Assembly: GCA_964541235.1 (NCBI GenBank)
Contig: CAZIPI010000001.1
Coordinates: 110,774 to 174,773, forward strand
Direction of reading: 5' to 3'
Length of the DNA: 64,000 bases
From: an uncultured bacterium
GTDB lineage: Bacteria; Fermentibacterota; Fermentibacteria; Fermentibacterales; JCC-6
The notes below the pieces were generated by a model. The model saw nothing but the letters and a program-made list of their open reading frames with translations, had not been told where the DNA came from and did no database searches. Shown piece after piece: positions 27,927 to 45,069 of the stretch. The stretch's first letter is position 1, and every line of letters begins with the position of its first letter. The position numbers and the translations under genes were made by a program.

Positions 27927-27947
27927 ACCCGGACTGCCTTCGAGAGC

Positions 27948-28383: not shown

Positions 28384-28917
28384 TCAGTTCTCTTTGCTTT
28401 CCCTGACCGCATTCAGCGCGTAGAGAAGTTTCCTTATCACGCCGCCGGAAACGGTGACGAATCCACGTATGGGAGCTGTGGCGGAACCCAGCACCCGGGC
28501 CAGGAGCTCATCACGTCCCGGCATGTCCGCCAGGCTTGCGACCTGGGCCGCATTGAAGCTCCTGCCGGCCACGAAACCGCCCTTGATGACCGGCCGGCCA
28601 CCGTGGGTGGAAGCGAAATCCTTCAGAAGCTTCGCCGGAAGCACTTCGTCACGGCTGGACGCCAGTGCGGTGGGCCCCGAAAGGCAGCCGAAAACGCCTT
28701 CCTCGCCTGTGAGCTCGATGCCCTTGAGAACTATGTCCAGCAGGGTGTTCTTCACAACTGTGAACTGCACACCGCGCTCCCGCATGGTTCTTCTGAGTTC
28801 GGTCATCTCCGCCACGGTGATGCCGGTGAAATCCGCCAGAACGAATGTCCCGTTCACGGAAAGGTCTTCCGTGAGCGAAGCGACGGTGGTTTCCTTACGC
28901 TGTCTGGTTATGCTCAT
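28384..28917 (-). CDS. rplJ: 50S ribosomal protein L10
   Basis: 177-aa L10-like sequence, placed between rplA and rplL. Confidence 0.9.
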   Translation of the reverse strand: MSITRQRKETTVASLTEDLSVNGTFVLADFTGITVAEMTELRRTMRERGVQFTVVKNTLLDIVLKGIELTGEEGVFGCLSGPTALASSRDEVLPAKLLKDFASTHGGRPVIKGGFVAGRSFNAAQVASLADMPGRDELLARVLGSATAPIRGFVTVSGGVIRKLLYALNAVRESKEN

Positions 28918-28927
28918 TCCACCCTCC

Positions 28928-29632
28928 TCACTTGAGTACCGACCGGAGATCGGCGGTGTCGACCCGAACTCCGGGGCCCATGGTGGAAGAGACCGACATG
29001 CTGATGATGTACTTGCCCTTTGCCGTAGCAGGCTTGAGCTGCATCACCTTCTCCATGAAGGCCACAATGTTCTCCCTGAGGGCAGGCTCATCGAAACTCA
29101 CCTTCCCCACGGGAACGTGAAGCACACCGGTCTTGTCAACCCTGAAGCTGATCTTGCCGGCCTTGGCCTCTTTGACTGCCTGAGCGATGTCCATGGTAAC
29201 TGTACCTGTCTTGGGGTTGGGCATCAGTCCCCTGGGACCGAGGATCCTGGCAACGGCGCCCAGGCCCTTCATCATGTCCGGGGTGGCTATCACCACGTCG
29301 AACTCAAGCCAACCCGACTTTATGCGTTCGATGGTTTCCTCGTCGCCCACCGCATCCGCGCCGGACTCTTTCGCCTCTTCGGCTTTCTCGCCCCTGGCGA
29401 ACACGAGGACCCTTACTTTCCGTCCGGTTCCGTTGGGAAGGATGCATGTGCCCCTTACCACCTGGTCCGAATGCTTGGGGTTGACGCCCAGGTTCACCGC
29501 GACCTCGACGGTCTCGTCGAACCTGGCTGTGGCGGCCCCCTTCACAAGGGCGATGGTCTCGTCGAGGGTGTACGACTTGAGCCGGTCCACCGTTTCACGC
29601 GCCAGGGCGAACCTTCTGCTGACCTTAGCCAT
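28928..29632 (-). CDS. rplA: 50S ribosomal protein L1
   Basis: [17 protein letters not shown]...[22 protein letters not shown]. Confidence 0.95.
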
Positions 29633-30053
29633 CCACCACCTCCAGGCCCATGCTCCGGGCGGTGCCCCGGATCATCTCCACCGCGGATTCCTCGGATGCG
29701 GCGTTGAGGTCCTTCATCTTCGTGCGGGCAATCTCGCGGCACTGGGCAAGGGTTACGGTCCCAACCTTGTTGCGGTTGGATTCCGGCGACCCCTTTGCCA
29801 GGCCGGCGGCCCGTTTCAGAAGGATCGCAGCGGGAGGCGACTTGAGCTCGAAGGTAAAGCTTCTGTCCTTGTAGACCGTGACCACCGCCGGGATGATCAG
29901 GCCTTCCTGCCCCTGGGTACGGGCATTGAACTCCTTGCAGAACCCGGCGAGGTTGATGCCGTACTGGCCCAGTGCGGGCCCCACGGGGGGCGCCGGAGTG
30001 GCCTGTCCTGCGGGGAGCTGAAGCTTTACCATGCCCAAGATCTTCTTGGCCAT
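29625..30053 (-). CDS. rplK: 50S ribosomal protein L11
   Basis: [30 protein letters not shown]. The start was set at the internal ATG (30051-30053), which has an AAAGGAG Shine-Dalgarno sequence; the ORF-track start is 30068. Confidence 0.9.
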
Positions 30054-30150
30054 GGGAACTCCTTTCATCCGTCCCGTTCCTCCCCTTGATGGAACGGCGG
30101 CGGACCGATTGCGGGGTTGGAAAACCCCCTGTTATGGCCCGGGGTTTCCC

Positions 30151-30732
30151 CTAGACCAGCCTGATCTGGGAATGGTCAATCTCCACCGGGGCCTTGCGGC
30201 CGAAGATCGTGAAGATGACCCTCACCTTACCCCTCTCGGGGTTGATGGACTCGATGACGCCCGTGAAATTGCGGAAGGGGCCCTCCACCACGCGGACGGT
30301 CTGACCGACCTTGAAGGATATCCGGACGACCTTCCTCTCCTCGGAGCCGTCGGTCTGGCCGAGGATCCGCCGCATGTCCGAGTCCGGCAGCGGTGTGGGT
30401 CTTCCCTTGTTCATGGGAGGAAAACCGCTCACGTTGACCATGCCCCTTATGTCGAGAATCATCTCGTCGTCAACTTCCAGCTGGACGAAGACGTAGCCCG
30501 GGTAGAGCTTCTTCTCTCTGGTGACATCCTTGCCGTTCCGGCGGTTGGTGATCTCCTCGGTGGGAATGACCACCTTTCCGACCCGGCCGGGGAACTTCCT
30601 CTTGAGCGCGCCTTCGAGGAACTTCTTCACCCTGAGCTCGTAGCCGGAGTAGGAGTGCACCACGTACCACTTGAGGTTCCCGGTTTCCTCCAGGACGCCC
30701 TCTTCCACGGCGGACAGCCCGGGTGCCGCCAT
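30151..30732 (-). CDS. nusG: Transcription termination/antitermination factor NusG
   Basis: NGN domain (KWYVVHSYSGYE) plus the KOW motif (FKVGQTVRVVEGPFRNFTGVIESI). Confidence 0.95.
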   Translation of the reverse strand: MAAPGLSAVEEGVLEETGNLKWYVVHSYSGYELRVKKFLEGALKRKFPGRVGKVVIPTEEITNRRNGKDVTREKKLYPGYVFVQLEVDDEMILDIRGMVNVSGFPPMNKGRPTPLPDSDMRRILGQTDGSEERKVVRISFKVGQTVRVVEGPFRNFTGVIESINPERGKVRVIFTIFGRKAPVEIDHSQIRLV

Positions 30733-30974
30733 CAGTCGAGCGTCCTGATGAGGAAGGACATGGTCTGGGAGGCAAGGGTGTCCGCCAGGAAAATCCAGAC
30801 AGCCACCACCGCCACGGCGGCCAGGATGACCCAGGTGGATGCTATGGTCTCATCCCTGGTGGGCCAGGCCACCTTCACCAGCTCCGCCTTGACTTCACCA
30901 AGGAACTCGACGGCCAACCCCGTCCATCTGGACAGGAAGCCGAGTCTGCCTCCACCGGCCGTTTTAGCCGCCAT
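30732..30974 (-). CDS. secE: Preprotein translocase subunit SecE
   Basis: Start at the internal ATG (MAAKTAGG...EFLGEVKAELVKVAWPTRDE...). Single C-terminal TM segment. The position between tRNA-Trp and nusG is canonical. Confidence 0.85.
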   Translation of the reverse strand: MAAKTAGGGRLGFLSRWTGLAVEFLGEVKAELVKVAWPTRDETIASTWVILAAVAVVAVWIFLADTLASQTMSFLIRTLD

Positions 30975-31037
30975 GTTGAAATGCTCCGTCCCGTCGTTTC
31001 GTTTTCGTTGCACTGCCGTGGCCAACCGTCTGGGAAC

Positions 31038-31113
31038 TGGCAGGGCAGGAAGGACTCGAACCCTCAACCCCCGGATTTGGAGTCCGGTGCACTGCCAATT
31101 GTGCTACTGCCCT
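31038..31113 (-). tRNA. tRNA-Trp (anticodon CCA)
   Basis: Manual fold gives acceptor stem AGGGCAG/CTGCCCT, anticodon loop CUCCAAA, T-loop TTCGAGT and an encoded 3' CCA. 76 nt. Confidence 0.9.
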
Positions 31114-31138
31114 GCGTTCCCCGCCGCCGCGCCCGGTT

Positions 31139-31288
31139 CTACTTGCCTTCCCTGTGCTTGGTATGCTTTCGGCAGAACCGGCAATACTTGTTCAACTCCA
31201 TCCTGTCCGGATGGGTTCTCTTGTTCTTCGTGGTGCTGTAGTTGCGATGCTTGCACTCGGTGCAGGCCAGGGTGATTATCACTCGCAC
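31139..31288 (-). CDS. rpmG: 50S ribosomal protein L33 (GTG start)
   Basis: Reverse translation gives (M/V)[48 protein letters not shown], which has the L33 Cys4 motif. It is not in the ORF track because it is 49 aa with a GTG start. Confidence 0.85.
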
Positions 31289-31295
31289 CTTTCAC

Positions 31296-32492
<1,197 letters not shown>

Positions 32493-32566
32493 GTGTCTGG
32501 CTCCCTCTCATGAGTGGGTTTTCCGGTTGACCCGTTTTCCGCCCTTTTTTATCGCAATACCAGGCC

Positions 32567-32642
<76 letters not shown>

Positions 32643-32668
32643 TTTCCAGACCATCCAGAAAACCTCTT

Positions 32669-32744
32669 TGGAGCGGGAGACGGGGTTCGAACCCGCGACC
32701 CTCAGCTTGGAAGGCTGATGCTCTGCCAACTGAGCTACTCCCGC
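32669..32744 (-). tRNA. tRNA-Gly (anticodon TCC)
   Basis: GCGGGAGTAGCTCAGTTGGCAGAGCATCAGCCTTCCAAGCTGAGGGTCGCGGGTTCGAACCCCCGTCTCCCGCTCCA. Confidence 0.9.
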
Positions 32745-32762
32745 TCATAGAATAAAACATCC

Positions 32763-32851
32763 TGGTGGCGAGGGGTGGATTCGAACCACCGTAGGCGTCC
32801 GCCAACAGATTTACAGTCTGCCCCCTTTGGCCGCTCGGGAACCTCGCCACC
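32763..32851 (-). tRNA. tRNA-Tyr (anticodon GTA), type II with long variable arm
   Basis: GGTGGCGAGGTTCCCGAGCGGCCAAAGGGGGCAGACTGTAAATCTG...GGTTCGAATCCACCCCTCGCCACCA. The 3' CCA does not appear to be encoded. End coordinates are accurate to about 2 nt. Confidence 0.85.
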
Positions 32852-32886
32852 GCTATGCAAACCACGCCGTAAAGCGCATTTCTTCC

Positions 32887-32962
32887 TGGAGCTGGCGATG
32901 GGACTTGAACCCGCAACCTGCTGATTACAAATCAGCTGCTCTGCCAGTTGAGCTACGCCAGC
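32887..32962 (-). tRNA. tRNA-Thr (anticodon TGT)
   Basis: GCTGGCGTAGCTCAACTGGCAGAGCAGCTGATTTGTAATCAGCAGGTTGCGGGTTCAAGTCCCATCGCCAGCTCCA. Confidence 0.9.
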
Positions 32963-33090: not shown

Positions 33091-33909
33091 ATGTCAACGA
33101 CCATGACCCGAACGCTTCTGTTTGCGGCGCTGCTTCTTGTCATCGGGTGCGGCGGCGGGATACGGGACGAGCTGTCCATGGTGCCCGGCACCTGCCTCTT
33201 CCATGTTCACCTTGAAAAGGGCATCTCGCCGGCGGTCCTGAACGAGCTGGTATCCCTTGACCGCAACCTGGTGCTGGCCGAGTCCCTTCTCGCAAGGGGC
33301 CCAGTAGGCGTAACCCTGATGGGGGTGGACATCACCAGCCTCTCCCCGCAGTTCCTGTTCCTCACCAGGCGTGTCTCCCCGGACAGGGCCGCCGACCTTG
33401 CGGCCGAAATGCTGAACCTGTCCAGGACCGAAGACGGCAGCCGCATCAACCTTGCTGACAGGACAGGCCTCATCCGGGCATCGGTCACGGGCAGGAAGGG
33501 GTGGACGGCGATCTACCTCGGACCCGCTGCCAACATCACTGCGGATGCCTGGCTCAGGATGGAGAAGGTGGGCTCCCTGGCCGCGGACGAAGCCCTTCTT
33601 CAGGCGCTTCCCGGCAGACACCATGCCACGCTCATGCTGCCGGGGAACCTTTTCGCCTTCGTTTCGCTCCTTCCTGTTGAACGTTACATCCCCTGGTGGG
33701 AGGAGTACACCAGGATCTCGCGGCTGGTCAGGCCTTCCGCCATGACCCTTTCGGTCACTTGGCCATCGAGCGGAAGGATCGTCCTCGAAGCCATCATGGC
33801 ACGGGAGGACGGAGGCGTGACCTCCGCACGGTTCTCCATCGACGATACGGGTGTGAGCCCCGACAGCGTTTTCGCGCTCCTGTCCGGGCTCGCCGGAGGT
33901 CTTCTGTGA
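33091..33909 (+). CDS. Hypothetical lipoprotein (lipobox LLVIGC)
   Basis: Start at an ATG with a GGAGGT Shine-Dalgarno sequence. Signal peptide MSTTMTRTLLFAALLLVIGCGGG. The stop overlaps the next gene's GTG start (GTGA). Confidence 0.55.
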   Translation: MSTTMTRTLLFAALLLVIGCGGGIRDELSMVPGTCLFHVHLEKGISPAVLNELVSLDRNLVLAESLLARGPVGVTLMGVDITSLSPQFLFLTRRVSPDRAADLAAEMLNLSRTEDGSRINLADRTGLIRASVTGRKGWTAIYLGPAANITADAWLRMEKVGSLAADEALLQALPGRHHATLMLPGNLFAFVSLLPVERYIPWWEEYTRISRLVRPSAMTLSVTWPSSGRIVLEAIMAREDGGVTSARFSIDDTGVSPDSVFALLSGLAGGLL

Positions 33910-34580
33910 ACCCGGTGATAGAGGCCCGCGGCATCCACAGATCGTTCGGCGACATACCGGTGCTCCAGGGACTCGACATCTCCATGGAACCGGGAGGCTT
34001 CATAGCCGTCACAGGAAGGAGCGGCTCGGGGAAGAGCACGCTGCTGGGAATTCTCGGCACCCTTGACAGGGACTTCAAGGGGACCCTTCACATCGGCGGG
34101 GTGGACACCGCCACCCTTGACGGAGAAGCCCTTGCCGGTCTGAGACGGGAGAAGCTGGGCTTCATATTTCAGGACTTCCACCTTCTTCCGAACCTGACCG
34201 CGCTGGAGAACGTGCTTCTGCCGGCGGTCTTCTCGGGACGGGAGATGGAGCCTGTGGAGAGGGAGGCGCGGGAACTGCTGGACAGGCTCGGCATACGCCT
34301 GGACGCAACCCCCAGCCGCTTCCTCTCCAGGGGTGAGAGGCAGAGGGTTGCAGCCGCCAGGGCGCTGGCAGGAAAGCCCGACGTTCTCCTGGCCGATGAG
34401 CCCACAGCAAGCCTTGATGAGGCCAGCGAGGAGATCCTTTTCGATCTCCTCGACAGCATGCGCCGGGAAAAGGGGTTCGCCCTGATGGCGGTGGTCCACA
34501 CCGCCGGCGTCCTTGAACGGGCCGACAGGGTCCTGGACCTGAGGGAGGGGGTGCTTCACGATGCGGGCATCCATGCGTAA
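33906..34580 (+). CDS. ABC transporter ATP-binding protein (LolD/MacB-type)
   Basis: Walker A (GRSGSGKST), the ABC signature (LSRGERQRVAAARAL) and Walker B (VLLADEPTASLD). The GTG start at 33906 was chosen; the track ORF 33696-34580 is an N-terminal over-extension. Confidence 0.85.
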   Translation: MNPVIEARGIHRSFGDIPVLQGLDISMEPGGFIAVTGRSGSGKSTLLGILGTLDRDFKGTLHIGGVDTATLDGEALAGLRREKLGFIFQDFHLLPNLTALENVLLPAVFSGREMEPVEREARELLDRLGIRLDATPSRFLSRGERQRVAAARALAGKPDVLLADEPTASLDEASEEILFDLLDSMRREKGFALMAVVHTAGVLERADRVLDLREGVLHDAGIHA

Positions 34581-35847
34581 GGCGATGCATCTCTGGAACA
34601 AGGGCCACTGGAGGGACTACCTGTTCAGCCAGGCCATGCTTCTGGTGGCATCCCTCCTCCTTGTTTTCTTCATCTCCATCGGTCTGGGCGTGGGGCGCAT
34701 ACTCGACCGCTTCCTGTCCAGCGACCTCCCCGAGGAGCAGGTGAGGGTCACTCCGCAGGTGATCTCCGCGGGGTTCTTCCAGACCGAAAGGGGCGGGGTG
34801 GAGATAACCGACGCGCTTCTCGACTCGCTCCTTGAGATGCCCCAGGTGGCACGGATAGACCGGCAGGTCTATGCCCATGTGCCCGCCTACCTCCGGGGGC
34901 TCCTGGGCGGCAGGAACTACTACACGGACATCACCATGGAGGGGGTCACCAGCGCTTTCGTGCCGGACAGCCTCGAGGAGCGGTTCGGGTGGGACTACAC
35001 CCTTGCCGACAGCTCGAGGGCAAGGCTGCCGATAATCCTTTCCGAGAACCTTCTTCTTCTGTACAACGCCGGCTTCGCCGAGGCCCACGGGCTGATGGGT
35101 CTCACACAGCAGGGAGTAGTGGGACTGGAGTGCCAGGTCACCCTTGGCGCCAGCTCCATCGCCAGCCTGCAGGCAAGGCCGATAACCGTCAACGCACAGA
35201 TAATCGGCACCAGCAGGAACATGGCCCTTTTCGCCCTGGCGGTTCCCATCGGTTTCGTCGAGGAGGTGAACCAGCTCTTTCTGCCTGACAGGGCCCACAG
35301 CTACAGCGCCCTGATGGTAACCGCAACCTCGGCCGAACTGGTCCCAGAGATCGTGAGGAAGGCCGAATCCCTGGGCCTCCGCGCCGAAACCCACCGGGGG
35401 ATCGCCCAGAAGGCCGAGATCCTGGTGGGCATAGTGACCGCGGCACTGGGGGCCCTGGCGGTGGCCATACTCGGCGCCGCCCTTGCAAGCGCCGTACACA
35501 CACTGGTGGCGGACCTGAAGAACCGTTCCTACGCCCTGGGGGTCCTGGTGGCCCTGGGAACCACCAGGGAGAGGCTTGCCCAGGTGTTCGCCTTCCAGAT
35601 CTTCCTGATGTCCGCCGCCACCACCCTGATCGGCGGGCTCACAGGCTGCGGGCTTGCTGCGCTGGTGAGTTACGGCCTTCTCTCACTCCTTCCCGTACTG
35701 CAGATGGCAGTCCCCTCACTGGCGGTGTTCCCCGTGGCCCATCTCCTGGCGGGGCTGGGAACCGTTCTTCTGGCTTCCACAGCATGGGCGTGGTTCTTCT
35801 TCAGAAAGATACTCGGCACGCCGGTGACCGAGTTGTTGAGGCGGTAA
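34561..35847 (+). CDS. ABC transporter permease, FtsX/LolE-like
   Basis: One N-terminal TM segment, a large periplasmic loop and three C-terminal TM segments. Adjacent to the ATPase gene. Confidence 0.7.
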   Translation: MRASMRKAMHLWNKGHWRDYLFSQAMLLVASLLLVFFISIGLGVGRILDRFLSSDLPEEQVRVTPQVISAGFFQTERGGVEITDALLDSLLEMPQVARIDRQVYAHVPAYLRGLLGGRNYYTDITMEGVTSAFVPDSLEERFGWDYTLADSSRARLPIILSENLLLLYNAGFAEAHGLMGLTQQGVVGLECQVTLGASSIASLQARPITVNAQIIGTSRNMALFALAVPIGFVEEVNQLFLPDRAHSYSALMVTATSAELVPEIVRKAESLGLRAETHRGIAQKAEILVGIVTAALGALAVAILGAALASAVHTLVADLKNRSYALGVLVALGTTRERLAQVFAFQIFLMSAATTLIGGLTGCGLAALVSYGLLSLLPVLQMAVPSLAVFPVAHLLAGLGTVLLASTAWAWFFFRKILGTPVTELLRR

Positions 35848-37040
35848 TGGGAAAGATATGCCTTCTGATATGCCTGGCGTGTGCCGGCGGGCTCATGGCC
35901 CAGTGGCCGGACAAGGTGATAGCAACCGTATCCACCGGGCAACACCCCAACGACGCCTGCTTCTCATCCGACGGGACAAGCGCCTTCGTGGCGGTGGGCT
36001 ACGGCCTGCTTTCCAGGATAAGCACCCAGTCCTGGACCGTGAGCGGAGTGCTCTCTCTGGGGGGAACCCCGATGTGCGTCACCACCGCCGGGAACACCGT
36101 GCTGGTGGCTGACGAGGGGCTTGACCGGCTTCTGTTCATCGATGGGGACTCACTGACGGTCCTGGCTGAACGGGCCATGGCCCCGGGACCGGCGGAGTTC
36201 CAGACCTCTCCCGACGGAAGCCGGGTGTACCTTTCCCACAGCGGCGGGTTCGTCAGCGTCATTGACGTTCAGACCATGGAGATAGAGTCTGTCGTATGGG
36301 TGGGCTACCAGCCCGGGGGCTGCCATGTGACCCCGGAAGGCGGAACCCTCTTCATAGCCGACAACCAGAGCCCCGAGGAAACGGCTTTCATCCTTCCGGA
36401 AGGGCCCGTCCAGAGGTTCGTATCCGGCATGGACAGCTTCGACTGCACGGGAGCGCAGGGCAAGCTCTACTTCTCCAACCCTTCCTGGGGAATCCTTCTC
36501 AGGGTTGACCAGGCGACCCGCCAGACAGAGGGAAGCCTGGGCCTCACCGGAGCCGAGCCGAGGTGGATGGCGCCCATCCCGGGCACACCCTACATGGCTG
36601 TGGTCTCCACATCTGACAACACGCTCAGGATCATAGACACCGGTCAGTTCCAGCAGTCGGGGCAGATCGCGGTCGGCGCTTCACCTCAGCGCATAAGGGT
36701 CTCCCCCGACGGCGCCTACATCCTCGTGCCCTGCCGCGGCACCGGGAAGCTCTACGTCATCGGACATGACCCGGCTGGTGTGGAGACCGGCGGCACAGGT
36801 TTCTCGCTTCGCAGTGCCGGTCCATCCGGCGCACCCGCAGTAACACTTGAACTTGACCGCCCGGTGTGCGTCACCGTGACCCTTCACGACCTTGCGGGCC
36901 GCACCGTGGCCCGGCTCCACCACGGCCCCCTTCCGGCGGGAGTACATACATTCCAGTGTCCCGGCCTGCCTGCGGGAGTGTACCACGCCGCGGCAAGGGG
37001 GGGCATCGAGGGCGGGTGCAGGCTGACGGTCATCAGATGA
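35847..37040 (+). CDS. Secreted beta-propeller (YVTN/YncE-like repeat) protein with C-terminal T9SS-type/FlgD-Ig-like sorting domain
   Basis: Start placed at MGKICLLICLACAGG (signal). Repeated 'S.DG...YV' blades. The C-terminal ~70 aa (VTLHDLAGRTVARLHHGPLPAGVHTFQCPGLPAGVYHAAARGG...LTVIR) resembles Por/T9SS C-terminal domains. Confidence 0.55.
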   Translation: MGKICLLICLACAGGLMAQWPDKVIATVSTGQHPNDACFSSDGTSAFVAVGYGLLSRISTQSWTVSGVLSLGGTPMCVTTAGNTVLVADEGLDRLLFIDGDSLTVLAERAMAPGPAEFQTSPDGSRVYLSHSGGFVSVIDVQTMEIESVVWVGYQPGGCHVTPEGGTLFIADNQSPEETAFILPEGPVQRFVSGMDSFDCTGAQGKLYFSNPSWGILLRVDQATRQTEGSLGLTGAEPRWMAPIPGTPYMAVVSTSDNTLRIIDTGQFQQSGQIAVGASPQRIRVSPDGAYILVPCRGTGKLYVIGHDPAGVETGGTGFSLRSAGPSGAPAVTLELDRPVCVTVTLHDLAGRTVARLHHGPLPAGVHTFQCPGLPAGVYHAAARGGIEGGCRLTVIR

Positions 37041-38020
37041 ACCTGGCCTTCGTTGTTCCGGTAACACGCCCGGAAGACGCCAGGGCCCTGGCTGAATGTC
37101 TGGCCGGTTCCCCGGTGACCGGGGACTGCGAGATCGTCTTCGTAACAGGGCGGAAGATTCCGGGCCTTCCCGCAAACGTCCATTGCCTGGAGACACGTGA
37201 GAGGCACGCCTCGGCCAGGCGGAACCTTGGGGTAAAGGCCACTGCGGCTGAATGGATAGCTTTCCTTGACGACGACACTCTGCCGACCGGGACCTGGTTC
37301 AAGGCCCTTTCGCATGCCATTGACGGTGCCGACCCCATCGTCACAGGCCCCACGCTGCCCATGGGCAGGGACCTCGATGAAAGGCTATCCGACCTTGTAA
37401 CCACGTCGGCCCTTGGCGAGGGAAGCATGCTCTACGGCTCAAGGGATGGGTCCTCGCCGGGTTTCAGCTCCGTCTATCTGTGCAACTGCCTGGTCAAGCG
37501 TGAGGTATGGGAACGTGTAGGAGGTTTCAACGAACTGGCGGACTGGCGCGTGGACGACACCGAGTTCTTCTACATCGCCCTGCGCCTTGGCTTCCGTCCG
37601 GTCTTCATAAGGGCCTTCACTGTCAGGCACCGGCGCAGGGGTTTCTTCCACGGCTTCCTGCCCCACCAGTTCAGGGCGCGCTTCGCCACCGGCATGAACA
37701 CGGTGATCTTCCCCGAGATATTCCTTCGGATACCGGGGGTTACCGCCATGCTAGCGGGCCTCGCTCTCGCACCGGTGATCGCTGCCGTGCCGGTCCTGCT
37801 GAAAGCCGTCATTCTTCTCTACTTCTGCGCGCTGCTCCTTGACACCCTGCTGCGGATACCCCGTGACAAAGCGGCCGCGCTTCTTCCGGTGTGCCACCCG
37901 ATCCATCACGCGACGATCGCCACCGGGTTCACACTGGGCCTCCTGCACACTCTCCTCACGCGGCGCAGGCACAAGACCGTCCTGGCCCACCGCGCGGAAA
38001 GGTACGGTGTGTTCCGGTGA
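37037..38020 (+). CDS. Glycosyltransferase family 2 with C-terminal membrane anchor
   Basis: ATG at 37037 overlapping the upstream stop (ATGA). Contains the DDD motif (IAFLDDDTLP) and C-terminal TM helices. Confidence 0.65.
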   Translation: MNLAFVVPVTRPEDARALAECLAGSPVTGDCEIVFVTGRKIPGLPANVHCLETRERHASARRNLGVKATAAEWIAFLDDDTLPTGTWFKALSHAIDGADPIVTGPTLPMGRDLDERLSDLVTTSALGEGSMLYGSRDGSSPGFSSVYLCNCLVKREVWERVGGFNELADWRVDDTEFFYIALRLGFRPVFIRAFTVRHRRRGFFHGFLPHQFRARFATGMNTVIFPEIFLRIPGVTAMLAGLALAPVIAAVPVLLKAVILLYFCALLLDTLLRIPRDKAAALLPVCHPIHHATIATGFTLGLLHTLLTRRRHKTVLAHRAERYGVFR

Positions 38021-38046
38021 GACGGCGTCCCTACGGCTTCGCCTCC

Positions 38047-39099
38047 ATGGCGCTTCGCAGCCTGTTCTCCGGAACGCCTCCGTACCTTGTCTTCTTTGTG
38101 ACATCCAGGTGCGACGCAAGGTGCGTCACCTGCTTCAACTGGAGGAACCTGAACTCGAAGCGGAAGGACCAGGAACTGTCCCTTCAGGAGATCGAGAGGA
38201 TAGCCGGTTCCTGCAAGCGGAGCGTCTTTCTATCCCTGTCGGGAGGGGAACCTTTCCTGAGGGATGACATCGCCGCCATCTGCGGGGCATTCTGCGCACG
38301 GGCAGGGACGATGATGATCAACATACCCACCAACTGCCTGCGTCCGGAAGAGATAAGGGACAGGACCCTTCAGATACTCCGGGCCTGCCCGAGGACCATC
38401 CTTCAGGTCGAGCTTTCCATCGACGGCGTCGGCGAGGTGCACGACACCGTAAGGGGTGTTCCCGGCAACTTCGGGAAAGCCATGGAGACCTTCGGGAAAC
38501 TGCACGAGCTTCAGCAGGGACAGCCTCGGCTCAGGCTCAAGGTCTGCTCTGTGCTCAACACCTGGAACCGCCACCAGATCCGCGACCTGATGGAGTTCGT
38601 GAAGCGGAACATGCCGGTGGACGACCATTCCATCGTGCCCGTTCACGGAGAACCAAGGGACGGGTCGGTCCGGGGGGACCCGGTGGAAGACTTCCGGGAA
38701 GCGGCGGCTCTCGCCGACTCGCTGCGCAACCGCGGCAGTGCAGGGTTCAGGGCCCGGGTCTTCAGGGAGGTCCAGTCACTGGCAAGGCAGAGCATGCTCG
38801 GCGCACTGGGCGGAACCGGCCGCCGATTCGTTTGTCCCGGCGGCTCGAAGATAGCCGTGATAGGGGAAACCGGCCTTGTCTATCCCTGTGAGACCATGAT
38901 GGCCGAACCCCTTGGCGACCTTCGGAAGGAAGACTACGACCTGCCCCGGATCCTCTCCCGGAAGGCAGTGAACGGGAAGTGCCAGTGCGGCTGGTCATGT
39001 GCGCACCTGGCCTCTGTCCTTTTCTCTCACCGAGGCAGGCTGAAGCTGGCGCTGCGAATGGCTGGCCTGCCCGCGAGCCGCAGGGGGGGATGCAACTGA
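38047..39099 (+). CDS. Radical SAM protein with C-terminal SPASM-like Cys cluster
   Basis: CDARCVTC (CxxxCxxC) at residues ~22-29 after the MALRSLFSG start, with SGGEPFL following. C-terminal Cys residues (CPGGSKI...YPCE...CQCGWSCAHL). Confidence 0.75.
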   Translation: MALRSLFSGTPPYLVFFVTSRCDARCVTCFNWRNLNSKRKDQELSLQEIERIAGSCKRSVFLSLSGGEPFLRDDIAAICGAFCARAGTMMINIPTNCLRPEEIRDRTLQILRACPRTILQVELSIDGVGEVHDTVRGVPGNFGKAMETFGKLHELQQGQPRLRLKVCSVLNTWNRHQIRDLMEFVKRNMPVDDHSIVPVHGEPRDGSVRGDPVEDFREAAALADSLRNRGSAGFRARVFREVQSLARQSMLGALGGTGRRFVCPGGSKIAVIGETGLVYPCETMMAEPLGDLRKEDYDLPRILSRKAVNGKCQCGWSCAHLASVLFSHRGRLKLALRMAGLPASRRGGCN

Positions 39100-40190
39100 G
39101 GCTCCTGCACGTCATCAACAACCTCAGCATTGGGGGAGCGGAGGTGCTTCTTCGCGGTTCCCTTCCGCTATTGAGGGAGCGGGGGGTGACGGCCGCGATA
39201 CTGGTGCTCTCCGGTGATGGCCGGGATATGTCGAACGACATGGTTGAAGAGGGCATCCGCGTGCTGAGAAGCCGTGCGGGCCGGTTGTCATCTCCGGCTC
39301 AGGTCCCTGAGGTCCGCAGACTTCTGAAGAGCTTCGATCCCGACATCGTTCATGTACACCTGTTCCCCTCCCTGTACTGGACCGCTCTCGCTTGCCCCGG
39401 AAACGGCCCCCCGATGGTGTACACCGAACACAGCACCATGAACAGGAGGAGGGGGCTCCCCTTCCTCCGCCCCGTGGAGACCCTCATCTACCGCCGCTAC
39501 ATAAGGATCATCTGCATCAGCGAGGGCGTTCGCGGTTCGCTCCTTTCCTGGAACCCGTCCCTCTCCCGAAGGGCCGTGGTGGTACACAACGGGATAGACA
39601 TTCAACGGATCAGAGGGGCTGAACCTGCGAACAGGGGTGAGCTTTGCCCGGGGTGCGCCCCAGGGGACAGACTGCTGGTCATGGCCGCCTCGTTCACCCG
39701 GAAGAAGGACCAGGCTACGGTGATAAGGGCTCTCGGGCACCTGCCGGAATGCTTCCGCCTGGTGCTTCCCGGTGACGGTCCCACCATCGGGGAGATGAAA
39801 AGGCTCGCCGGCGATCTTGGCCTGGCTGCGAGGGTGGGATTTCCCGGCCATTGCACCGATATCCCCGGCATCCTGAAGGCCTGCGACTACGGGATCCAGT
39901 CTTCGAACCACGAGGGGTTCGGTCTCGCTGCGGTGGAATCCATGGCGGCAGGGATACCGTTGTTCGCATCACGGATCCCCGGTCTGTCCGAGGTGGTGGG
40001 TGACGCAGGCATCCTGTTCCGGCCGGGCGATCACAGGGAACTGGCCCAGACCATCCTTGAGACTGACAGGCAGGAGGGAGCCAGGGTGAACCTTTCGCAA
40101 AAGGGGATGGAACGGGCCGAACGTTTCCGGATCGAGAACATGGTGGAAAAGCTGTTGAACATCTACGGCTCGGTGCTGGAACGGGCCTGA
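39090..40190 (+). CDS. Glycosyltransferase family 4
   Basis: ATG with a GGGGGGGA Shine-Dalgarno sequence, overlapping the radical SAM stop by 10 nt. GT-B fold with the EGFGLAAVESMAAGIP motif (the E-x7-E region). Confidence 0.8.
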   Translation: MQLRLLHVINNLSIGGAEVLLRGSLPLLRERGVTAAILVLSGDGRDMSNDMVEEGIRVLRSRAGRLSSPAQVPEVRRLLKSFDPDIVHVHLFPSLYWTALACPGNGPPMVYTEHSTMNRRRGLPFLRPVETLIYRRYIRIICISEGVRGSLLSWNPSLSRRAVVVHNGIDIQRIRGAEPANRGELCPGCAPGDRLLVMAASFTRKKDQATVIRALGHLPECFRLVLPGDGPTIGEMKRLAGDLGLAARVGFPGHCTDIPGILKACDYGIQSSNHEGFGLAAVESMAAGIPLFASRIPGLSEVVGDAGILFRPGDHRELAQTILETDRQEGARVNLSQKGMERAERFRIENMVEKLLNIYGSVLERA

Positions 40191-41530
40191 ACCGGGAGGG
40201 GCCCCTTCCGGGACAGGGCCGTCAGAGCTTTCTCCACCAGCAGAAATGCCAGCACCGTTGCCGGAAGCAGCGGCAAAAAACGGACATCAATGAGGATAAC
40301 CCCGGCCAGGCAGCCCAGCAGAGCGCCGAACAGCTCGATGGCAGCCAGGTTCCCGCCCGACACGTCCAGCACAAGCTCCTCCAGCTCGTTCAGGTCCAGC
40401 TGGTTCACCCTGGCCTGGACTATGCCCTTTACGTTGATCCCCGACGCCGCCCTTCCGGCGAACTTCCTGGCGGCGAGCCTGAACTCGGGCGAGAGGATCC
40501 TTCTTCCGGCCATGGCCGCCAGGCTGGCCACCTGTCCGTCCAACTGGCTCGAGACCCAGTTCCAGAGCCCGTCGGAGGCCAGCAGTGACCGTACTTTCAG
40601 TACGCCCAGCTCAACCCCCTCGGTCCTGGCCCACTGTGAAACGCTCTCCCTGAGATCGTCGAGCTTTCCCTGGAACCAGCTCCTGAAACCGGGTGAATCG
40701 ATCCAGGACTGTATCTCTTCCGTGTTTGCGTCCAGGAAGGCCAGTACTTCGTCGAAAAACCCGGGGGAACGCACTTTGCGCCGTATCTCCCTGATCAGCA
40801 GCTCCTCGTCCACCCTTAGCACCTTCTTGCCCAGGCCCAGGAACACCCGCTCCAGAAACCTCTTCGAGGAGATGTATTCTTCCAGCACGTTGTTCACCAT
40901 TGCCGAGACAGCTGCGCTGTTCCTGTCCGCAAGCGCCAGGAGGGAGCGCACAACAGCCTCCCGCGTGACCGGGTTCGCAAGCTCCTGCCGCACTGCTTCC
41001 CTGACCCGTGGCCAGACGCTCCCGGCGGCGGTCCTCTCCCTGATGAACTCGGTGATGAACTCCTGAACCTTCAGTATCAATGCCCCGGAATGGGCTTCAA
41101 GGATATCCACTGTCACCTTCTGCAGGTATCCGGCGGCGGCCGCCCTGACCTTTCTGCCCGTAAGCAGCCTGTGAACGTGGTCAACAGCGGCATGGGCGCC
41201 CTTTTCCAGCAGACCGTTCTGTTCGAGGTAATCCAGAACGGAATCGGTGTCCAGCAGCCTGGTCGCCACGGCTTCGCCTACGGCCCGGGCGAGTTCATCC
41301 CTCTTGGCCGGAATGAGCCCCTGGCGCCCGAATACCGTCCTCCTGTGGGGTCTGAACAGCATTCTTATGGCGAAGTGATTGGTCCAGAGCCCCACGGTTC
41401 CCGAGAGGGACACCATGAAGGGCCAGTCGAAGAACACCCGGGAGGGGAAAAAGTGGCCAAGGGCTCCGGATACGCAGGTCAGGGCCGGCAGAGCGATCAT
41501 CGTCGCCCGGCGAAGGCTTCTGACGTTCAA
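40163..41530 (-). CDS. DUF445-family membrane-associated protein (hypothetical)
   Basis: N-terminal TM segment (MIALPALTCVSGALG), a long helical middle region and C-terminal TM segments. Length and layout are typical of the DUF445/YjiN family. Its start overlaps the TPR gene stop by 4 nt. Confidence 0.55.
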   Translation of the reverse strand: MNVRSLRRATMIALPALTCVSGALGHFFPSRVFFDWPFMVSLSGTVGLWTNHFAIRMLFRPHRRTVFGRQGLIPAKRDELARAVGEAVATRLLDTDSVLDYLEQNGLLEKGAHAAVDHVHRLLTGRKVRAAAAGYLQKVTVDILEAHSGALILKVQEFITEFIRERTAAGSVWPRVREAVRQELANPVTREAVVRSLLALADRNSAAVSAMVNNVLEEYISSKRFLERVFLGLGKKVLRVDEELLIREIRRKVRSPGFFDEVLAFLDANTEEIQSWIDSPGFRSWFQGKLDDLRESVSQWARTEGVELGVLKVRSLLASDGLWNWVSSQLDGQVASLAAMAGRRILSPEFRLAARKFAGRAASGINVKGIVQARVNQLDLNELEELVLDVSGGNLAAIELFGALLGCLAGVILIDVRFLPLLPATVLAFLLVEKALTALSRKGPLPVQARSSTEP

Positions 41531-44286
41531 TTGCCGAACCTGAGCCGGAGGTAGTAATCCAGGTCGATCTTTTCCCAGGTATCCACCGCCGGCGTTCTGG
41601 TGTAGTCGAGGTTGAGCCCGAGCAGCAGTGAGAGCGGACCCGGAAGGTCGAAGTCCAGCTCAGTGTTCCCGTAGGAAACGGTGTGGCGGGCATCTCCGGG
41701 AGGGATGTATATGCTGCCGGCCAGCCAGAGGTGCGGCAGCCAGTGTACGGGGCGCCTCATCCAGACACCGACCGATGCGTAGGAAGTTACTCGGTCGGTC
41801 CTGTCCTCACCCACTGACCAGCGTGTGTTCACCAGCCCCACGCCTGCCTCCGGGGCGAACCAGATCCACTCAGCGGGCCAGCTCTTCCAGCCTATGGCGG
41901 AGTAGGAACTGACCTGCCATGGTCTGACTGTCAGGGGCTGGCGGTCCCAGCTGGAGCTGATCCCGGCGTACAGCCTTTCCGTGAAGAAGTGCTCAAGTGT
42001 CAGGGAACCGTAGGCTGACTCCCTCTCCCTTGTGCCGTTCCTCTCCTCCAGCCGCATGCTCCCGTTGAGCTTCAGTGAACTCCCCCGGACATAGTTGAGA
42101 CCAATCGAGGCTCCGCCGCTTATGGAGGATTCCTCCTGGTTGCCGCTGGAGAACGACAGGTCCGCCCACAGGCTCCAACTAAGAGGGCTGTACTTCTCCC
42201 TGTGCCAGGACCTGTCATAATCGCCACCGGTTATGTAAAGTATCCTTGATTCCGCGTAGGAATAGCCGGGCATTATCCTAAGTGCGTCGAGATACCTCTG
42301 GGCCGCGCGTTCAGGATTGCCGAGCCGCTCCTCAAGCAGGCCGAGATAGCAGATGGTGAAGACCGACGAGGGATCCCGGGCCAGGGCGGCCAGCAGAGCC
42401 TCCTGCGCCTCCTGAAGCCTGCCCTCGAAGAGCCTGGCCTCCCCCAGTTCCGACAGGACCGAGGCGGTGGAATCAAAGGCGAGAGCCATGGCCAGCCTGT
42501 CCCCCGCACCTGAGTAGTCGCCGGTCCTGTAGAAGAAGCCGGCAACCTCACGATGAGCTTCCACATCATCACCGGCAAGGCCCGAGGCGGCAAGGAAACA
42601 CTCGCCTGCCCTCTGGCCGTCTTCAAGTGATTCGTAAAGACCCCCCAGGTCTATCCAGTCCCAAGGGCTGGTGCTTCCCATCGTCATGGCCCTGTCCGCG
42701 GCCCGTTTCGCATAGTCCTTGAAACCCAGGCCCAGGGCGTTCCAGCCGTAGCGGGTGTAGGCCCCGCTTCCCGGGACAAGGTCCGCAACCGAGTCTGCGG
42801 CGACAACTGAACCGGAGTCGGACAGGATGAAGAACTTCTCCACCAGCCCCACCTCGGCTTCCGCTGCCGATGAGGACAGGTATCCATCGATGGCTCTCAG
42901 GGCGCTTCCGTGCTCTCCGGTCTGCCGGTACAGCCTGGCCAGGTTCAGCAGCCCGAAGCTGTAGTCCGGGCTTGCCTGTACGGCCCTCGCAAAGAACCCT
43001 GTGGCGCCGGGAACGTCACCGGCCATGAGACGGATGTTACCCATCTCCCCAAGCATCCAGGGGTCGTCACCGATGTGCTCGATCGCCATGCCGAACCACG
43101 CCATGGCTGCATTGTCGTCGCCGCCCTCCCTGAACAGGGCGCCACGGCGCTGCCACCCGTAGGTGTAGGAGCTGTCCAGCGAGACACCGCTCTCGTAGGC
43201 TTCCGCCGCTGCGGAAAGGTCACCGACGGATTCCAGGGTCCATCCCAGCTCGCCCCAGGCCCAGCTGGAAGGGTTGTGTTCGAGGCTCTTCCGGAATGCC
43301 TCGGCGGCCCGGTACAGGTCTCCCGTGTCTTCGCAGGCAAGGCCCAGGTCTATCCAGGCCTGGGAGAAAGAACTGTCCGCAGCCACCGCCTCCTCCAGGA
43401 ACTCCACGGCACGGAACGGGTCTTCGGCCAGTAATCCCAGCCTGTGATAGGCCCACGCGTAGGAGGGGTTGGCCTGGACCCCGGCAGAATAGTACTCGCC
43501 GGCGGTCTCCAGCCTTCCCAGTTGTTCCATGAGAAGCCCCAGCTGACCCCATGTCCAGTAGTCGTCGGGTGAGGCGGATACTACGTTCCTGAACGCCTTC
43601 ACGGCGTGGCCCAGCCTCCCCTGCTCCTCGTGAAGCGAGCCTATGAGCCGCAGGGTGCCCAACCTGTCAGGGTTCGACAGCAGCACTCCCTCCAGTACGG
43701 AAAGGGCGGAATCATGCATTCCAAGGTAGCCGAAAACAGCGGCCTTCTCCTCCATCATCGAATAGCCGAGGGGGTGCTGGTCTATCCCGCGGTCGAGGGT
43801 CTGAAGCGCCTCCTGAAGGCGGCCCAGGTCTTCCAGGGCCCACGCGGCGGTAAGCACCGCAGGGATGAAACCGGGGTCCACGGAAAGTGCCGCAGAGGCC
43901 AGCCTGTACGCCTCGTCGGGGTCAGGAACGGTGAGGCTGTAGTAGGCATAGGATTCCAGAAGGACCGGATCGTCCCCTGGCGCAAGCTCCATGGCCTTCC
44001 GGAAGGCGGCTTCGGCGCCTTCCCGGTCCGATTCAGTGAGAATGGCGCCCAGGGCGGTCCAGGAGCGGAAGTCCGTTGAATCCTCCTGTACCCCTGCCAG
44101 AGCCAGTTCGAGGGAACCGTCATCCCCTGAATAGTACATTGAGAGGGCGATGGAGGGGTTACGGCCCGCAGCGGAGTCCGGCAGGTTCCCCGCCAGTTCC
44201 AGCGCCTCCGCATGGTCTGCGGTCCTGTAGCTTCCATACCAGCCCTCGGGCCAGAACACCGACACAAGGAGAAGGAACAAGGCCAA
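41527..44286 (-). CDS. TPR-repeat protein (919 aa) with C-terminal putative beta-barrel/porin-like domain
   Basis: Many 34-aa W/Y-LG-x-A-Y repeats across the first ~680 aa. The last ~230 aa is rich in alternating aromatic/small residues (SYASVGVWMRRP...LDYYLRLRFGN). Confidence 0.65.
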   Translation of the reverse strand: MALFLLLVSVFWPEGWYGSYRTADHAEALELAGNLPDSAAGRNPSIALSMYYSGDDGSLELALAGVQEDSTDFRSWTALGAILTESDREGAEAAFRKAMELAPGDDPVLLESYAYYSLTVPDPDEAYRLASAALSVDPGFIPAVLTAAWALEDLGRLQEALQTLDRGIDQHPLGYSMMEEKAAVFGYLGMHDSALSVLEGVLLSNPDRLGTLRLIGSLHEEQGRLGHAVKAFRNVVSASPDDYWTWGQLGLLMEQLGRLETAGEYYSAGVQANPSYAWAYHRLGLLAEDPFRAVEFLEEAVAADSSFSQAWIDLGLACEDTGDLYRAAEAFRKSLEHNPSSWAWGELGWTLESVGDLSAAAEAYESGVSLDSSYTYGWQRRGALFREGGDDNAAMAWFGMAIEHIGDDPWMLGEMGNIRLMAGDVPGATGFFARAVQASPDYSFGLLNLARLYRQTGEHGSALRAIDGYLSSSAAEAEVGLVEKFFILSDSGSVVAADSVADLVPGSGAYTRYGWNALGLGFKDYAKRAADRAMTMGSTSPWDWIDLGGLYESLEDGQRAGECFLAASGLAGDDVEAHREVAGFFYRTGDYSGAGDRLAMALAFDSTASVLSELGEARLFEGRLQEAQEALLAALARDPSSVFTICYLGLLEERLGNPERAAQRYLDALRIMPGYSYAESRILYITGGDYDRSWHREKYSPLSWSLWADLSFSSGNQEESSISGGASIGLNYVRGSSLKLNGSMRLEERNGTRERESAYGSLTLEHFFTERLYAGISSSWDRQPLTVRPWQVSSYSAIGWKSWPAEWIWFAPEAGVGLVNTRWSVGEDRTDRVTSYASVGVWMRRPVHWLPHLWLAGSIYIPPGDARHTVSYGNTELDFDLPGPLSLLLGLNLDYTRTPAVDTWEKIDLDYYLRLRFGN

Positions 44287-44289
44287 TTC

Positions 44290-45069
44290 TCACACTCCAG
44301 TTTCAAGAACGGACACCAGGATGCCTGATATCCCCACCGCCCAGCAGTACCAGCAGAACCTGTGAAGCGCTCCGGCCTGGACGAACCGCACCAGAAGCCT
44401 CAGCGAGCCGTACCCCACCAGGGCGGACACTGCGAAGCCCGCGGCAAGCACGCCTATTGGGGTATTCCATTCAGCCTTGGGCAGTTCCAGGACTGCGGCC
44501 CCGAGTATGGCGGGCACCGACAGCAGAAAGGAGAACCTGGCCGCCGCCGCCCTGTCAACACCCCGGAACAGACCGGCGGAGATGGTCATGCCGGAGCGGG
44601 AGACCCCGGGCAGGACCGCCACGGCCTGAAAGACACCTGTCAAGAGCCCGCACGCCAAACCGGGTTCCCGGTTCCCCTTTTGGGGGAACCTGGTGAGAAA
44701 GAGGACCGCACCGGTGAGCAGCATGAGAGTGCTCACCACCAGGGGCATCCCGGAAATCCTCTCAACGCCCCTGGAGAGGAAGACCCCCACTATCCCTGCC
44801 GGAACAGAGGCCACAGCCAGGGCAATGGCCATGTTGACGCTCCGGCGCGTTCCCTTCAGAACCCCCGATGCCAAGGACAGAATGTCGCCGCCGTAAACAA
44901 GCAGGACAGCCAGGAGGGTCCCGAGGTGAAGCATGATGTCGAACGCCAGTGTCTTCCCGGGAACCTCCATCACCGCTGAAGCCAGGGCCAGGTGCCCCGA
45001 GCTGGATACGGGAAGGAACTCGGTAACACCCTGTATGAACGCCAGGATGATGCTTTCGGCGTATGTCAC
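44290..45069 (-). CDS. uppP: Undecaprenyl-diphosphatase (BacA/UppP)
   Basis: TEFLPVSSSGHL and PGVSRSGMTI motifs. GTG start at 45067-45069, overlapping the lysC stop (GTGA). The track ORF 44290-45282 is an over-extension into lysC. Confidence 0.85.
   Translation of the reverse strand: MTYAESIILAFIQGVTEFLPVSSSGHLALASAVMEVPGKTLAFDIMLHLGTLLAVLLVYGGDILSLASGVLKGTRRSVNMAIALAVASVPAGIVGVFLSRGVERISGMPLVVSTLMLLTGAVLFLTRFPQKGNREPGLACGLLTGVFQAVAVLPGVSRSGMTISAGLFRGVDRAAAARFSFLLSVPAILGAAVLELPKAEWNTPIGVLAAGFAVSALVGYGSLRLLVRFVQAGALHRFCWYCWAVGISGILVSVLETGV

Follow-up and report, generated by a model that had tools for sequence, protein, structure and literature searches.

A conserved pair of a membrane glycosyltransferase and a radical SAM enzyme that may tailor membrane-anchored sugars in Bacteria and Archaea

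To our knowledge, radical S-adenosylmethionine (SAM) enzymes that act on carbohydrates belong almost exclusively to antibiotic pathways, apart from two cases in which HpnJ or calditol synthase (Cds) forms a lipid head group, and neither of these has been reconstituted. In the HpnI/HpnJ system, a membrane-associated family 2 glycosyltransferase (GT2) that resembles family 21 puts a hexosamine on a lipid and the radical SAM enzyme is thought to contract the ring of the sugar (PMC13459092). Likewise, Cds of Sulfolobus acidocaldarius is a radical SAM enzyme proposed to act once glycosyl transfer has taken place, turning the glucose on a lipid into a carbocyclic head group (PMC13459092). Here we describe a pair of genes for a membrane-embedded GT2 and a radical SAM enzyme, which lies in a 64-kb stretch of contig CAZIPI010000001.1 from an uncultured member of the Fermentibacterota. 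This whole stretch (~62% GC) is hereafter called the window. The GT2 and the radical SAM enzyme form a unit that is conserved, coupled in translation, and fused in several instances, and the radical SAM family resides in gene clusters for glycans and glycoconjugates. On balance, we favor the reading that the pair performs radical tailoring of a sugar that is on, or destined for, a membrane-anchored and probably polyprenyl phosphate-linked glycoconjugate. The two genes are as follows.

37037-38020, + strand: membrane-embedded, MftF-like GT2, 327 aa; Glycos_transf_2 (PF00535) at 23.9 bits (cut-off 23.3) and Glyco_trans_2_3

38017-39099, + strand: radical SAM enzyme, 360 aa from GTG 38017 (350 aa from ATG 38047); Radical_SAM at 56.4 bits, with a twitch-like or abbreviated SPASM C-terminal Cys cluster

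The pair appears to work in the manner of known radical SAM systems that tailor lipid-linked sugars, yet by profile scores and gene content it would be a member of none of them. The HpnI/HpnK/HpnJ pathway for bacteriohopanetetrol cyclitol ether also has a glycosyltransferase beside a radical SAM enzyme and a membrane-anchored substrate. However, HpnJ carries a B12-binding domain whereas the window enzyme is of the twitch/SPASM-like type. Against HpnI, the window GT2 reaches 17 bits (cut-off 310), the radical SAM enzyme reaches 36 bits against HpnH (cut-off 225), and there are no shc or hpn genes in the window. With Cds, which was compared by description only, the window pair has in common the idea that a sugar on a lipid is tailored by radical chemistry. 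Reports of Cds homologs come mainly from acidophiles, whereas the window radical SAM family is spread over anaerobic bacterial and archaeal phyla. Among the twitch or SPASM radical SAM enzymes that act on sugars, BtrN, DesII, BlsE, and AbmM have only 11-18% identity to the window enzyme. These proteins belong to antibiotic pathways and, unlike the window family, are not paired or fused with membrane GT2s.

In the window, seven + strand open reading frames (ORFs) run head to tail between positions 33091 and 40190. They code for a lipoprotein, an ATP-binding cassette (ABC) ATPase, an FtsX/MacB-type permease, a YVTN beta-propeller protein, the GT2, the radical SAM enzyme, and a family 4 glycosyltransferase (GT4). 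Comparison with relatives reveals which of these genes belong together. Close orthologs of the radical SAM enzyme (65-100% identity) form only 11 clusters, and the next level of identity is 38%. Wherever orthologs are 57-100% identical, the GT2 gene lies directly upstream of the radical SAM gene with a 4-nt overlap, and the other neighbors vary. L089, whose 2.07-Mb contig codes for a GT2 with 78% identity, and L006, whose radical SAM enzyme is 71% identical, are the nearest relatives; they keep the order from lipoprotein through radical SAM enzyme and have no GT4 gene. In both, the flanks from rpoB to DUF6935 are also syntenic with the window. At L004 (66%), a GT2, a short-chain dehydrogenase/reductase (SDR)-type epimerase/dehydratase, a nucleotidyltransferase, and a second epimerase precede the pair, and ABC and propeller genes are missing. 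At L090 (57%), the pair stands alone with a ferredoxin gene upstream.

The original prediction had treated GT2, radical SAM enzyme, and GT4 as a triad. Because the GT4 gene is absent from L089, L006, L004, and L090, this triad is not conserved, an outcome that the prediction itself had named as refuting it. The conserved functional unit is the GT2-radical SAM pair, rather than the triad or the operon as a whole, and the unit of interest is accordingly corrected from a seven-gene or three-gene locus to a two-gene module.

More distant relatives were collected by scanning one genome per GTDB species, which yielded 80 loci with radical SAM relatives at 27-41% identity. These loci come from Acidobacteriota, Omnitrophota, Elusimicrobia, Planctomycetota, Chloroflexota, Nitrospirota, Myxococcota/Desulfobacterota, Latescibacterota, Patescibacteria, Bathyarchaeota, Woesearchaeota, and Nanoarchaeota, and include one cultured Pelotomaculum. 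Partners were sought with a GT2 hidden Markov model (HMM), iterated from the window protein, over 82 distant loci (radical SAM enzyme at <=38% identity). An MftF-like GT2 is directly adjacent on the same strand at 42 of the 82 and lies within 1.6 kb at 52. Specifically, a full-length GT2 lies directly upstream at 29 loci, a contig end truncates it at a further 4, and it is directly downstream at 9 and within 1.6 kb at 10. Junctions of -4 or -1 nt between the two genes are frequent. The density of GT2 genes in the 1.4 kb beside the radical SAM gene is 6.5 times that in the outer flanks of the same loci (54 in 209 kb versus 30 in 750 kb; Poisson P ~8e-26).

A Pfam tally of neighboring genes gives the same picture. 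GT2 is by far the commonest neighbor (42/149 upstream and 19/144 downstream candidate ORFs), followed by GT4, further radical SAM enzymes (some of them B12-binding), SAM methyltransferases, SDR/epimerases, alkaline-phosphatase-superfamily proteins, and PMT_2 proteins. GT4 genes account for 11 of the downstream ORFs. Matches to Glyco_transf_21 (GT21), a glycosyltransferase family with lipid acceptors, occur in 17 partner ORFs.

Natural fusions provide a second line of evidence. A profile search of 1.84 billion representatives returned at least 3,050 members of the radical SAM family (50%-identity clusters) at E<=1e-30. Lengths of 600-740 aa are found in approximately 13 of the best 150 representatives, and judged by length ~9% look like glycosyltransferase fusions. 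When ten atypically long representatives were scanned, all eight at 600-740 aa proved to be fusions (P0205, P0206, P0207, P0211, P0223, P0270, P0331, and P0329), and the other two (464 and 487 aa) carry a Radical_SAM domain only. Six of the eight have the order GT2-radical SAM, one is reversed, and one joins the radical SAM enzyme to a WecG/TagA domain. Similarly, a GT2 with membrane helices and the radical SAM enzyme occupy a single ORF at two Elusimicrobia loci (L083:8462-11092 and L057:3-1943).

Some fusions sit in informative surroundings. At L091, a GT4 gene is followed by the radical SAM-WecG fusion, a pyruvyl transferase, an epimerase, and a PEP-CTERM protein. The L092 cluster (4812-13244) comprises a radical SAM-GT2 fusion, a B12-binding radical SAM enzyme, a short GT2, a PMT_2 GT-C enzyme, another B12-binding radical SAM enzyme, and a ferredoxin; it looks like an elaborate pathway for a radical-tailored polyprenyl phosphate sugar. 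The link between the radical SAM enzyme and glycosyltransferases, which had first been proposed from the window alone, is strengthened by the cross-phylum adjacency and the natural fusions. In the literature we found no description of the GT2-radical SAM pair or of Fermentibacteria glycosyltransferases, nor did we find the module described by any curated family of Pfam or NCBIfam or by any solved structure.

At two Acidobacteriota-type loci (L008:5519-9134 and L007:8001-10664), a B12-binding radical SAM enzyme joins the radical SAM enzyme or the GT2-radical SAM pair. This additional protein is related to HpnJ, BchE, and ApyD, falls below the cut-off for each, and suggests two successive radical steps in some lineages. 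The trio of B12-binding radical SAM enzyme, GT2, and radical SAM enzyme at L008 raised the question of a hopanoid HpnH/I/J identity, which was rejected given scores of 156, 34, and 57 bits for HpnJ, HpnI, and HpnH against cut-offs of 578, 310, and 225.

Together with those of L092, these B12-binding neighbors resemble those of lipid clusters, and bear on a different interpretation of the pair. The radical SAM enzyme could act on a hydrocarbon, forming or altering a C-C bond of a polyprenyl chain or a membrane lipid in the manner of Tes/GDGT-MAS, Mss, and HpnH, with the GT2 adding a head group. The enzyme has weak sequence and structural similarity to Tes/GDGT-MAS and HpnH, and both the conserved GT2 membrane helices and the GT21-like matches would fit such a function. 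Nevertheless, the scores are far under the cut-offs (36-57 bits versus 225 for HpnH and ~40 versus 450 for Tes), the pair is found in Patescibacteria, in DPANN archaea, and across two domains with different core lipids, and its neighbors are genes for sugar nucleotides and polysaccharides rather than for lipid synthesis. We therefore regard action on a lipid chain as unlikely.

For the tailoring of a membrane-anchored sugar, polyprenyl phosphate would be the most economical acceptor. The pair is present in both Bacteria and Archaea, including the Candidate Phyla Radiation (CPR) and DPANN, and matches of the GT21 type occur in 17 partner ORFs. Moreover, one fusion partner is WecG/TagA, whose members are known to act only on undecaprenyl diphosphate-linked acceptors, and PMT_2-type GT-C enzymes, which use polyprenyl phosphate sugars, recur nearby. 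All four observations argue for this acceptor.

The GT2 itself has the hallmarks of an inverting membrane GT2 with a GT-A fold, namely a DxD motif, catalytic acids, and membrane helices. Its invariant residues are D78-D79-D80, E166, D174, H198, and H291, with Y262, P284, and H291 in the helical region. We counted the invariant residues located in membrane helices toward a role in lipid-linked glycan assembly. An AlphaFold2 model (predicted local distance difference test score, pLDDT, 93.5) has a GT-A domain followed by four C-terminal helices. Foldseek matched it to BcsA (query template-modeling score, TMq, 0.63), hyaluronan synthase (0.60), and the archaeal membrane mannosyltransferase PcManGT (0.55). 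Likeness to BcsA and hyaluronan synthase covers the catalytic and interface core, and PcManGT matches over the full length (TM 0.55/0.53). The same arrangement of a cytoplasmic GT-A domain and C-terminal membrane helices is found in polyprenyl phosphate glycosyltransferases of the ArnC/GtrB/DPMS type. Some systems of this type involve downstream tailoring and transfer by a GT-C enzyme, and L092 likewise has a GT2 and a PMT_2 GT-C enzyme. Models for ArnC, GtrB-like, and AglK-like proteins reach ~30-38 bits in distant homologs and give no match for the window GT2. The record of an 81%-identical GT2 ortholog is named from a Candidatus Fermentibacteraceae metagenome-assembled genome, and the window organism probably belongs to this family.

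The closest curated relatives of the GT2 partner are MftF and the arsenosugar-associated GT2 family TIGR04283. Both have a GT-A domain, a DxD motif, a Q-x-x-R-W-like motif, and C-terminal helices, and both work in systems that contain a radical SAM enzyme (MftC and ArsS). For the window GT2, MftF is the best curated relative at 52.9 bits (cut-off 280). Across the family, GT2 partners score 53-135 bits against MftF and 16-79 bits against TIGR04283 (cut-off 182), and neither MftA-E nor an ArsS-type radical SAM enzyme accompanies them. Since the scores are below the cut-offs and the partner genes are missing, the mycofactocin and arsenosugar systems were both rejected; the radical SAM homolog at L008, for example, scores 44.5 bits against MftC, for which the cut-off is 265.

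A looser resemblance to mycofactocin synthesis would be a system in which the radical SAM enzyme makes or modifies a small-molecule or peptide-derived aglycone that the MftF-like GT2 then glycosylates. Indeed, MftF is the best curated match of GT2 partners throughout the family, the radical SAM enzyme is of the SPASM/twitch type as is MftC, and MftF is known to oligoglycosylate premycofactocin (PMC7491314). We give little credence to this possibility. MftF and MftC scores are far under their cut-offs, and the pair is not accompanied by MftA- or MftB-like genes, by a conserved small ORF, or by a recognition element (RRE) domain of the kind used with peptides that are made on ribosomes and modified after translation (RiPPs). 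Also, the WecG/TagA fusion and the contexts with PMT_2, pyruvyl-transferase, and epimerase genes favor glycan assembly.

The radical SAM enzyme carries the CxxxCxxC motif (C22/C26/C29, all invariant) and the GGE SAM-binding motif in a partial TIM barrel that characterize the superfamily. An alignment of 24 members also displays a SPASM-type 'DG...HD..RG' strand. Five conserved C-terminal Cys residues (C263, C281, C312, C314, and the near-invariant C318) flank a predicted hairpin at 269-279. A canonical SPASM domain has seven Cys residues and two clusters, and a twitch domain has fewer Cys residues and one cluster. The five residues of the window enzyme are compatible with a single auxiliary cluster. 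Pfam SPASM is unmatched by this protein and weakly matched by many homologs. The C-terminal Cys cluster that had been noticed in the original prediction is real, and the accompanying SPASM label is less secure than had been suggested, given five Cys residues rather than seven and no match to Pfam SPASM.

The classification by radical SAM family HMMs that had been suggested was carried out with NCBIfam, and no curated cut-off is reached (NirJ1, PTO1314, AhbD, and other best matches score <=55 bits versus 170-650). An anaerobic sulfatase-maturating enzyme (anSME) with a sulfatase nearby had been named as an alternative identity, and this can practically be dismissed. No anSME model is among the NCBIfam matches listed, only five of the seven SPASM Cys residues are present, and the scanned proteins of the 64-kb window include no sulfatase domain. 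Two assignments to defense systems were rejected as well. For prokaryotic viperin (pVip), PADLOC gives 42.9 bits over positions 3-159 of a 257-position profile only, NF038283 scores 38 bits versus 180, and there are no other defense matches. For a GT4-containing conflict system, only generic partial matches were seen, and the eLife paper on conflict systems describes unrelated SPASM contexts.

By sequence, the best PDB match is SkfB (E=1e-4). The top structural neighbors include SkfB, CteB, SuiB, and PqqE, and structural similarity to the sugar-acting BlsE, DesII, and AbmM is comparable to that of the peptide-acting enzymes. These neighbors, along with the resemblance of the operon ATPase to ABC ATPases for bacteriocin export, would accommodate a RiPP or glycopeptide maturase, in which the radical SAM enzyme cross-links or epimerizes a ribosomal peptide and the GT2 then glycosylates it. 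However, the radical SAM protein has no match to an RRE or PqqD-like domain, because its core starts near residue 20, and it has only five conserved C-terminal Cys residues. The operon leaves no intergenic space for a precursor peptide gene, no conserved small ORF exists outside coding regions near the pair at six loci, and a 52-aa ORF called after the radical SAM gene at L004 has no counterpart at other loci, although a precursor encoded in trans might escape such a comparison. Since the neighbors are polysaccharide genes besides, we consider a peptide maturase very improbable. The lack of an RRE domain and of a conserved small ORF likewise tells against the glycosylated-peptide substrate envisaged at first.

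Under the interpretation that we favor, the GT2 would move a sugar from a nucleotide sugar to a membrane acceptor at the cytoplasmic face, most plausibly to polyprenyl phosphate or another lipid. The radical SAM enzyme, whose C22/C26/C29 residues are expected to bind a [4Fe-4S] cluster, would cleave SAM to generate the 5'-deoxyadenosyl radical. With one auxiliary cluster on the C-terminal Cys residues, it could then take a hydrogen from the sugar, either in the lipid-linked product or in the nucleotide-sugar donor. By analogy with BtrN, DesII, BlsE, HpnJ, and Cds, this would amount to a tailoring step that needs no oxygen, for example oxidation to a keto-sugar, epimerization, deoxygenation, or ring contraction, and the sequence does not single out one of these four chemistries. 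In the window species, the GT4 probably extends the glycan afterwards. The lipoprotein, MacB-type ABC, and propeller proteins would be co-transcribed neighbors, and a DevBCA-like handling of the product by them is conceivable but unsupported.

Several considerations weigh against this interpretation. The chemistry is wholly inferred, and none of the members of the radical SAM family has a known substrate or product. SkfB, the best structural neighbor, is a peptide maturase, and the fold does not separate sugar substrates from peptides or lipids. MftF, the nearest curated relative of the GT2, glycosylates a small-molecule cofactor and not a lipid (PMC7491314). The QxxRW motif is degenerate in the window GT2 (HQFRA), and the window operon is without a flippase or GT-C gene. 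Finally, a GT2 is missing within 1.6 kb at 30 of the 82 distant loci, some of these 30 having truncated flanks, and therefore the radical SAM family may be functionally heterogeneous.

A bolder proposal, which we advance only tentatively and regard as rather doubtful, is that the pair, together with its natural fusions, represents an unrecognized two-enzyme system of Bacteria and Archaea that makes a radically rearranged or oxidized sugar (carbocyclic, keto, or epimerized) on a polyprenyl phosphate or membrane-lipid carrier. This would be a new radical SAM reaction in the primary synthesis of cell-envelope glycoconjugates by anaerobic and mostly uncultivated phyla, similar in kind to those of HpnJ and Cds but of separate evolutionary origin.

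The window locus is an ordinary member of a large uncharacterized family, and its interest lies at the level of that family, in the coupling across phyla and the fusions. The radical SAM family is large, and in many phyla, among them candidate phyla, CPR, and DPANN, it is tied to membrane glycosyltransferases. If the pair does tailor lipid-linked sugars, it would offer a new oxygen-independent route to unusual envelope sugars and a functional annotation for thousands of genes labeled only 'radical SAM protein' or 'glycosyltransferase'. In that event, the single-polypeptide fusions (L083, P0206, and others) would be a convenient biochemical entry point.

The other five genes of the window operon are listed below.

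33091-33909, + strand: lipoprotein-like protein, 272 aa, with a signal peptide and an ...LLLVIGC lipobox; GGAGG Shine-Dalgarno sequence before ATG 33091

33906-34580, + strand: ABC ATPase of the MacB/LolD/DevA type, 224 aa; ABC_tran at 91.7 bits

34561-35847, + strand: FtsX/MacB-type (type VII ABC) permease, 428 aa; FtsX at 29.3 bits (cut-off 25.5)

35847-37040, + strand: secreted YVTN beta-propeller, 397 aa, with a C-terminal FlgD_ig-like beta-sandwich tail; TIGR02276 YVTN repeat at 54 bits

39090-40190, + strand: GT4 glycosyltransferase, 366 aa; Glyco_transf_4 at 97 bits and Glycos_transf_1 at 87 bits

The seven overlapping plus-strand genes of the original prediction are genuine. A coding signature rich in GC at the third codon position is found in all seven ORFs, and identical proteins for six of the seven exist in public collections, where independent gene calls on public contigs agree on the boundaries. 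The lipoprotein and ATPase genes are joined by a GTGA overlap, the ATPase and permease genes share 20 nt, the permease and propeller genes have 1 nt in common (TAATG), and the propeller and GT2 genes meet at ATGA. Between the GT2 and radical SAM genes, the junction is GTGA if the latter begins at GTG 38017, and there is a 26-nt gap if it begins at ATG 38047, as in the database call. The GTG codon is most likely the start, because orthologs keep an N-terminal 'YGF' extension and are called from an overlapping start. The end of the radical SAM gene (39099) overlaps the start of the GT4 gene by 10 nt.

The seven genes look like one tightly packed transcription unit, as had been proposed, and the packing and overlapping codons support this view. 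Terminator-like hairpins within the operon are no more numerous than expected by chance, and a scan for promoters detected none of the sigma-70 type on the + strand upstream of 33091. A convergent DUF445 gene lies downstream and overlaps the operon by 28 nt. Upstream and divergent from the operon, on the - strand (18371-32962), is the canonical cluster tRNA(Thr-Gly-Tyr-Thr)-tuf-secE-nusG-rplK-rplA-rplJ-rplL-rpoB-rpoC, which places the operon in a housekeeping region and not in a mobile island.

The GT4 gene is present in L001-L003, which are from the same organism, and judging from its absence in the four relatives described above it appears to be a species-specific addition to the operon. Recent duplication was ruled out as its origin, given 29% identity to the other GT4 at 46183-47292.

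The ATPase and the permease, which has four transmembrane segments and a large periplasmic domain, correspond to a type VII ABC transporter of the MacB/FtsX kind. An identical public protein of the permease carries precomputed matches to FtsX and to the PCD-like periplasmic domain PF28560. The ATPase scores 187 bits against LolD, 180 against MacB, and 147 against DevA, each under its NCBIfam equivalog cut-off. Thus, the architecture is the same as in DevBCA, MacB, and LolCDE, but there is no gene for a membrane-fusion protein here, and the transporter genes are linked to the GT2-radical SAM pair in one syntenic lineage only. The lipoprotein has no Pfam or NCBIfam matches, and it adjoins the pair only in Fermentibacteraceae-like genomes.

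The propeller had been described as carrying a C-terminal domain like those of the Por or type IX secretion system (T9SS). The propeller holds up on inspection, and the T9SS label is unconfirmed because the tail matches FlgD_ig only below threshold (21.2 bits, cut-off 27) and has no Por_Secre_tail (PF18962) or TIGR04183 match at E<=0.01. T9SS component genes are also missing from the scanned proteins of the window.

These findings bear on whether all seven genes might form a single pathway, in which a glycan or glycoprotein, perhaps the propeller itself, is built by GT2 and GT4, radically modified, exported by the ABC system, and sorted in T9SS fashion. Overlapping codons extend along the entire operon, and the gene order, minus GT4, is kept in L006 and L089. 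DevBCA exports glycolipids, so a MacB-type exporter could do so as well, and the ATPase does reach 147 bits against DevA. Despite these points, we think such a pathway improbable. In L006 and L089, synteny extends over the entire stretch from rpoB to DUF6935, so the linkage of ABC and propeller genes to the pair carries little independent weight. Neither L004, L090, nor any of the 82 distant loci has the ABC, lipoprotein, or propeller genes beside the pair. The GT4 is not conserved either, and the T9SS domain is unconfirmed. Hence the earlier suggestions that the ABC system exports the product and that the propeller is the substrate are left without independent evidence.

Other parts of the window deserve brief mention. 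Beyond the operon, on the - strand (41527-45069), are genes for a 919-aa protein with many tetratricopeptide (TPR) repeats and a C-terminal DUF481 outer-membrane barrel and then for BacA (undecaprenyl-diphosphatase), followed by GT4 genes at 46183-48623. L006 and L089 are syntenic with this envelope-related neighborhood (41527-48623). At 14774-18195 (- strand), a gene for a bacterial archaeo-eukaryotic release-factor family 3 (baeRF) protein overlaps its upstream gene; the partner is 781 aa long and has a Na+/H+ exchanger domain as its N-terminal half, which is an unusual pairing. Two divergent genes for DOMON-domain proteins (2568-5076), flanked by genes for an FMN reductase and a DUF5777 membrane beta-barrel, may constitute an extracytoplasmic redox module. 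Lastly, a phosphate-uptake region (56398-63881, - strand) contains genes for a PstS-like binding protein, PhoU, a permease, and a histidine kinase, and elsewhere in the window are a Na/Pi cotransporter-PhoU fusion (9355-11397) and an H+-pyrophosphatase (11606-13810).

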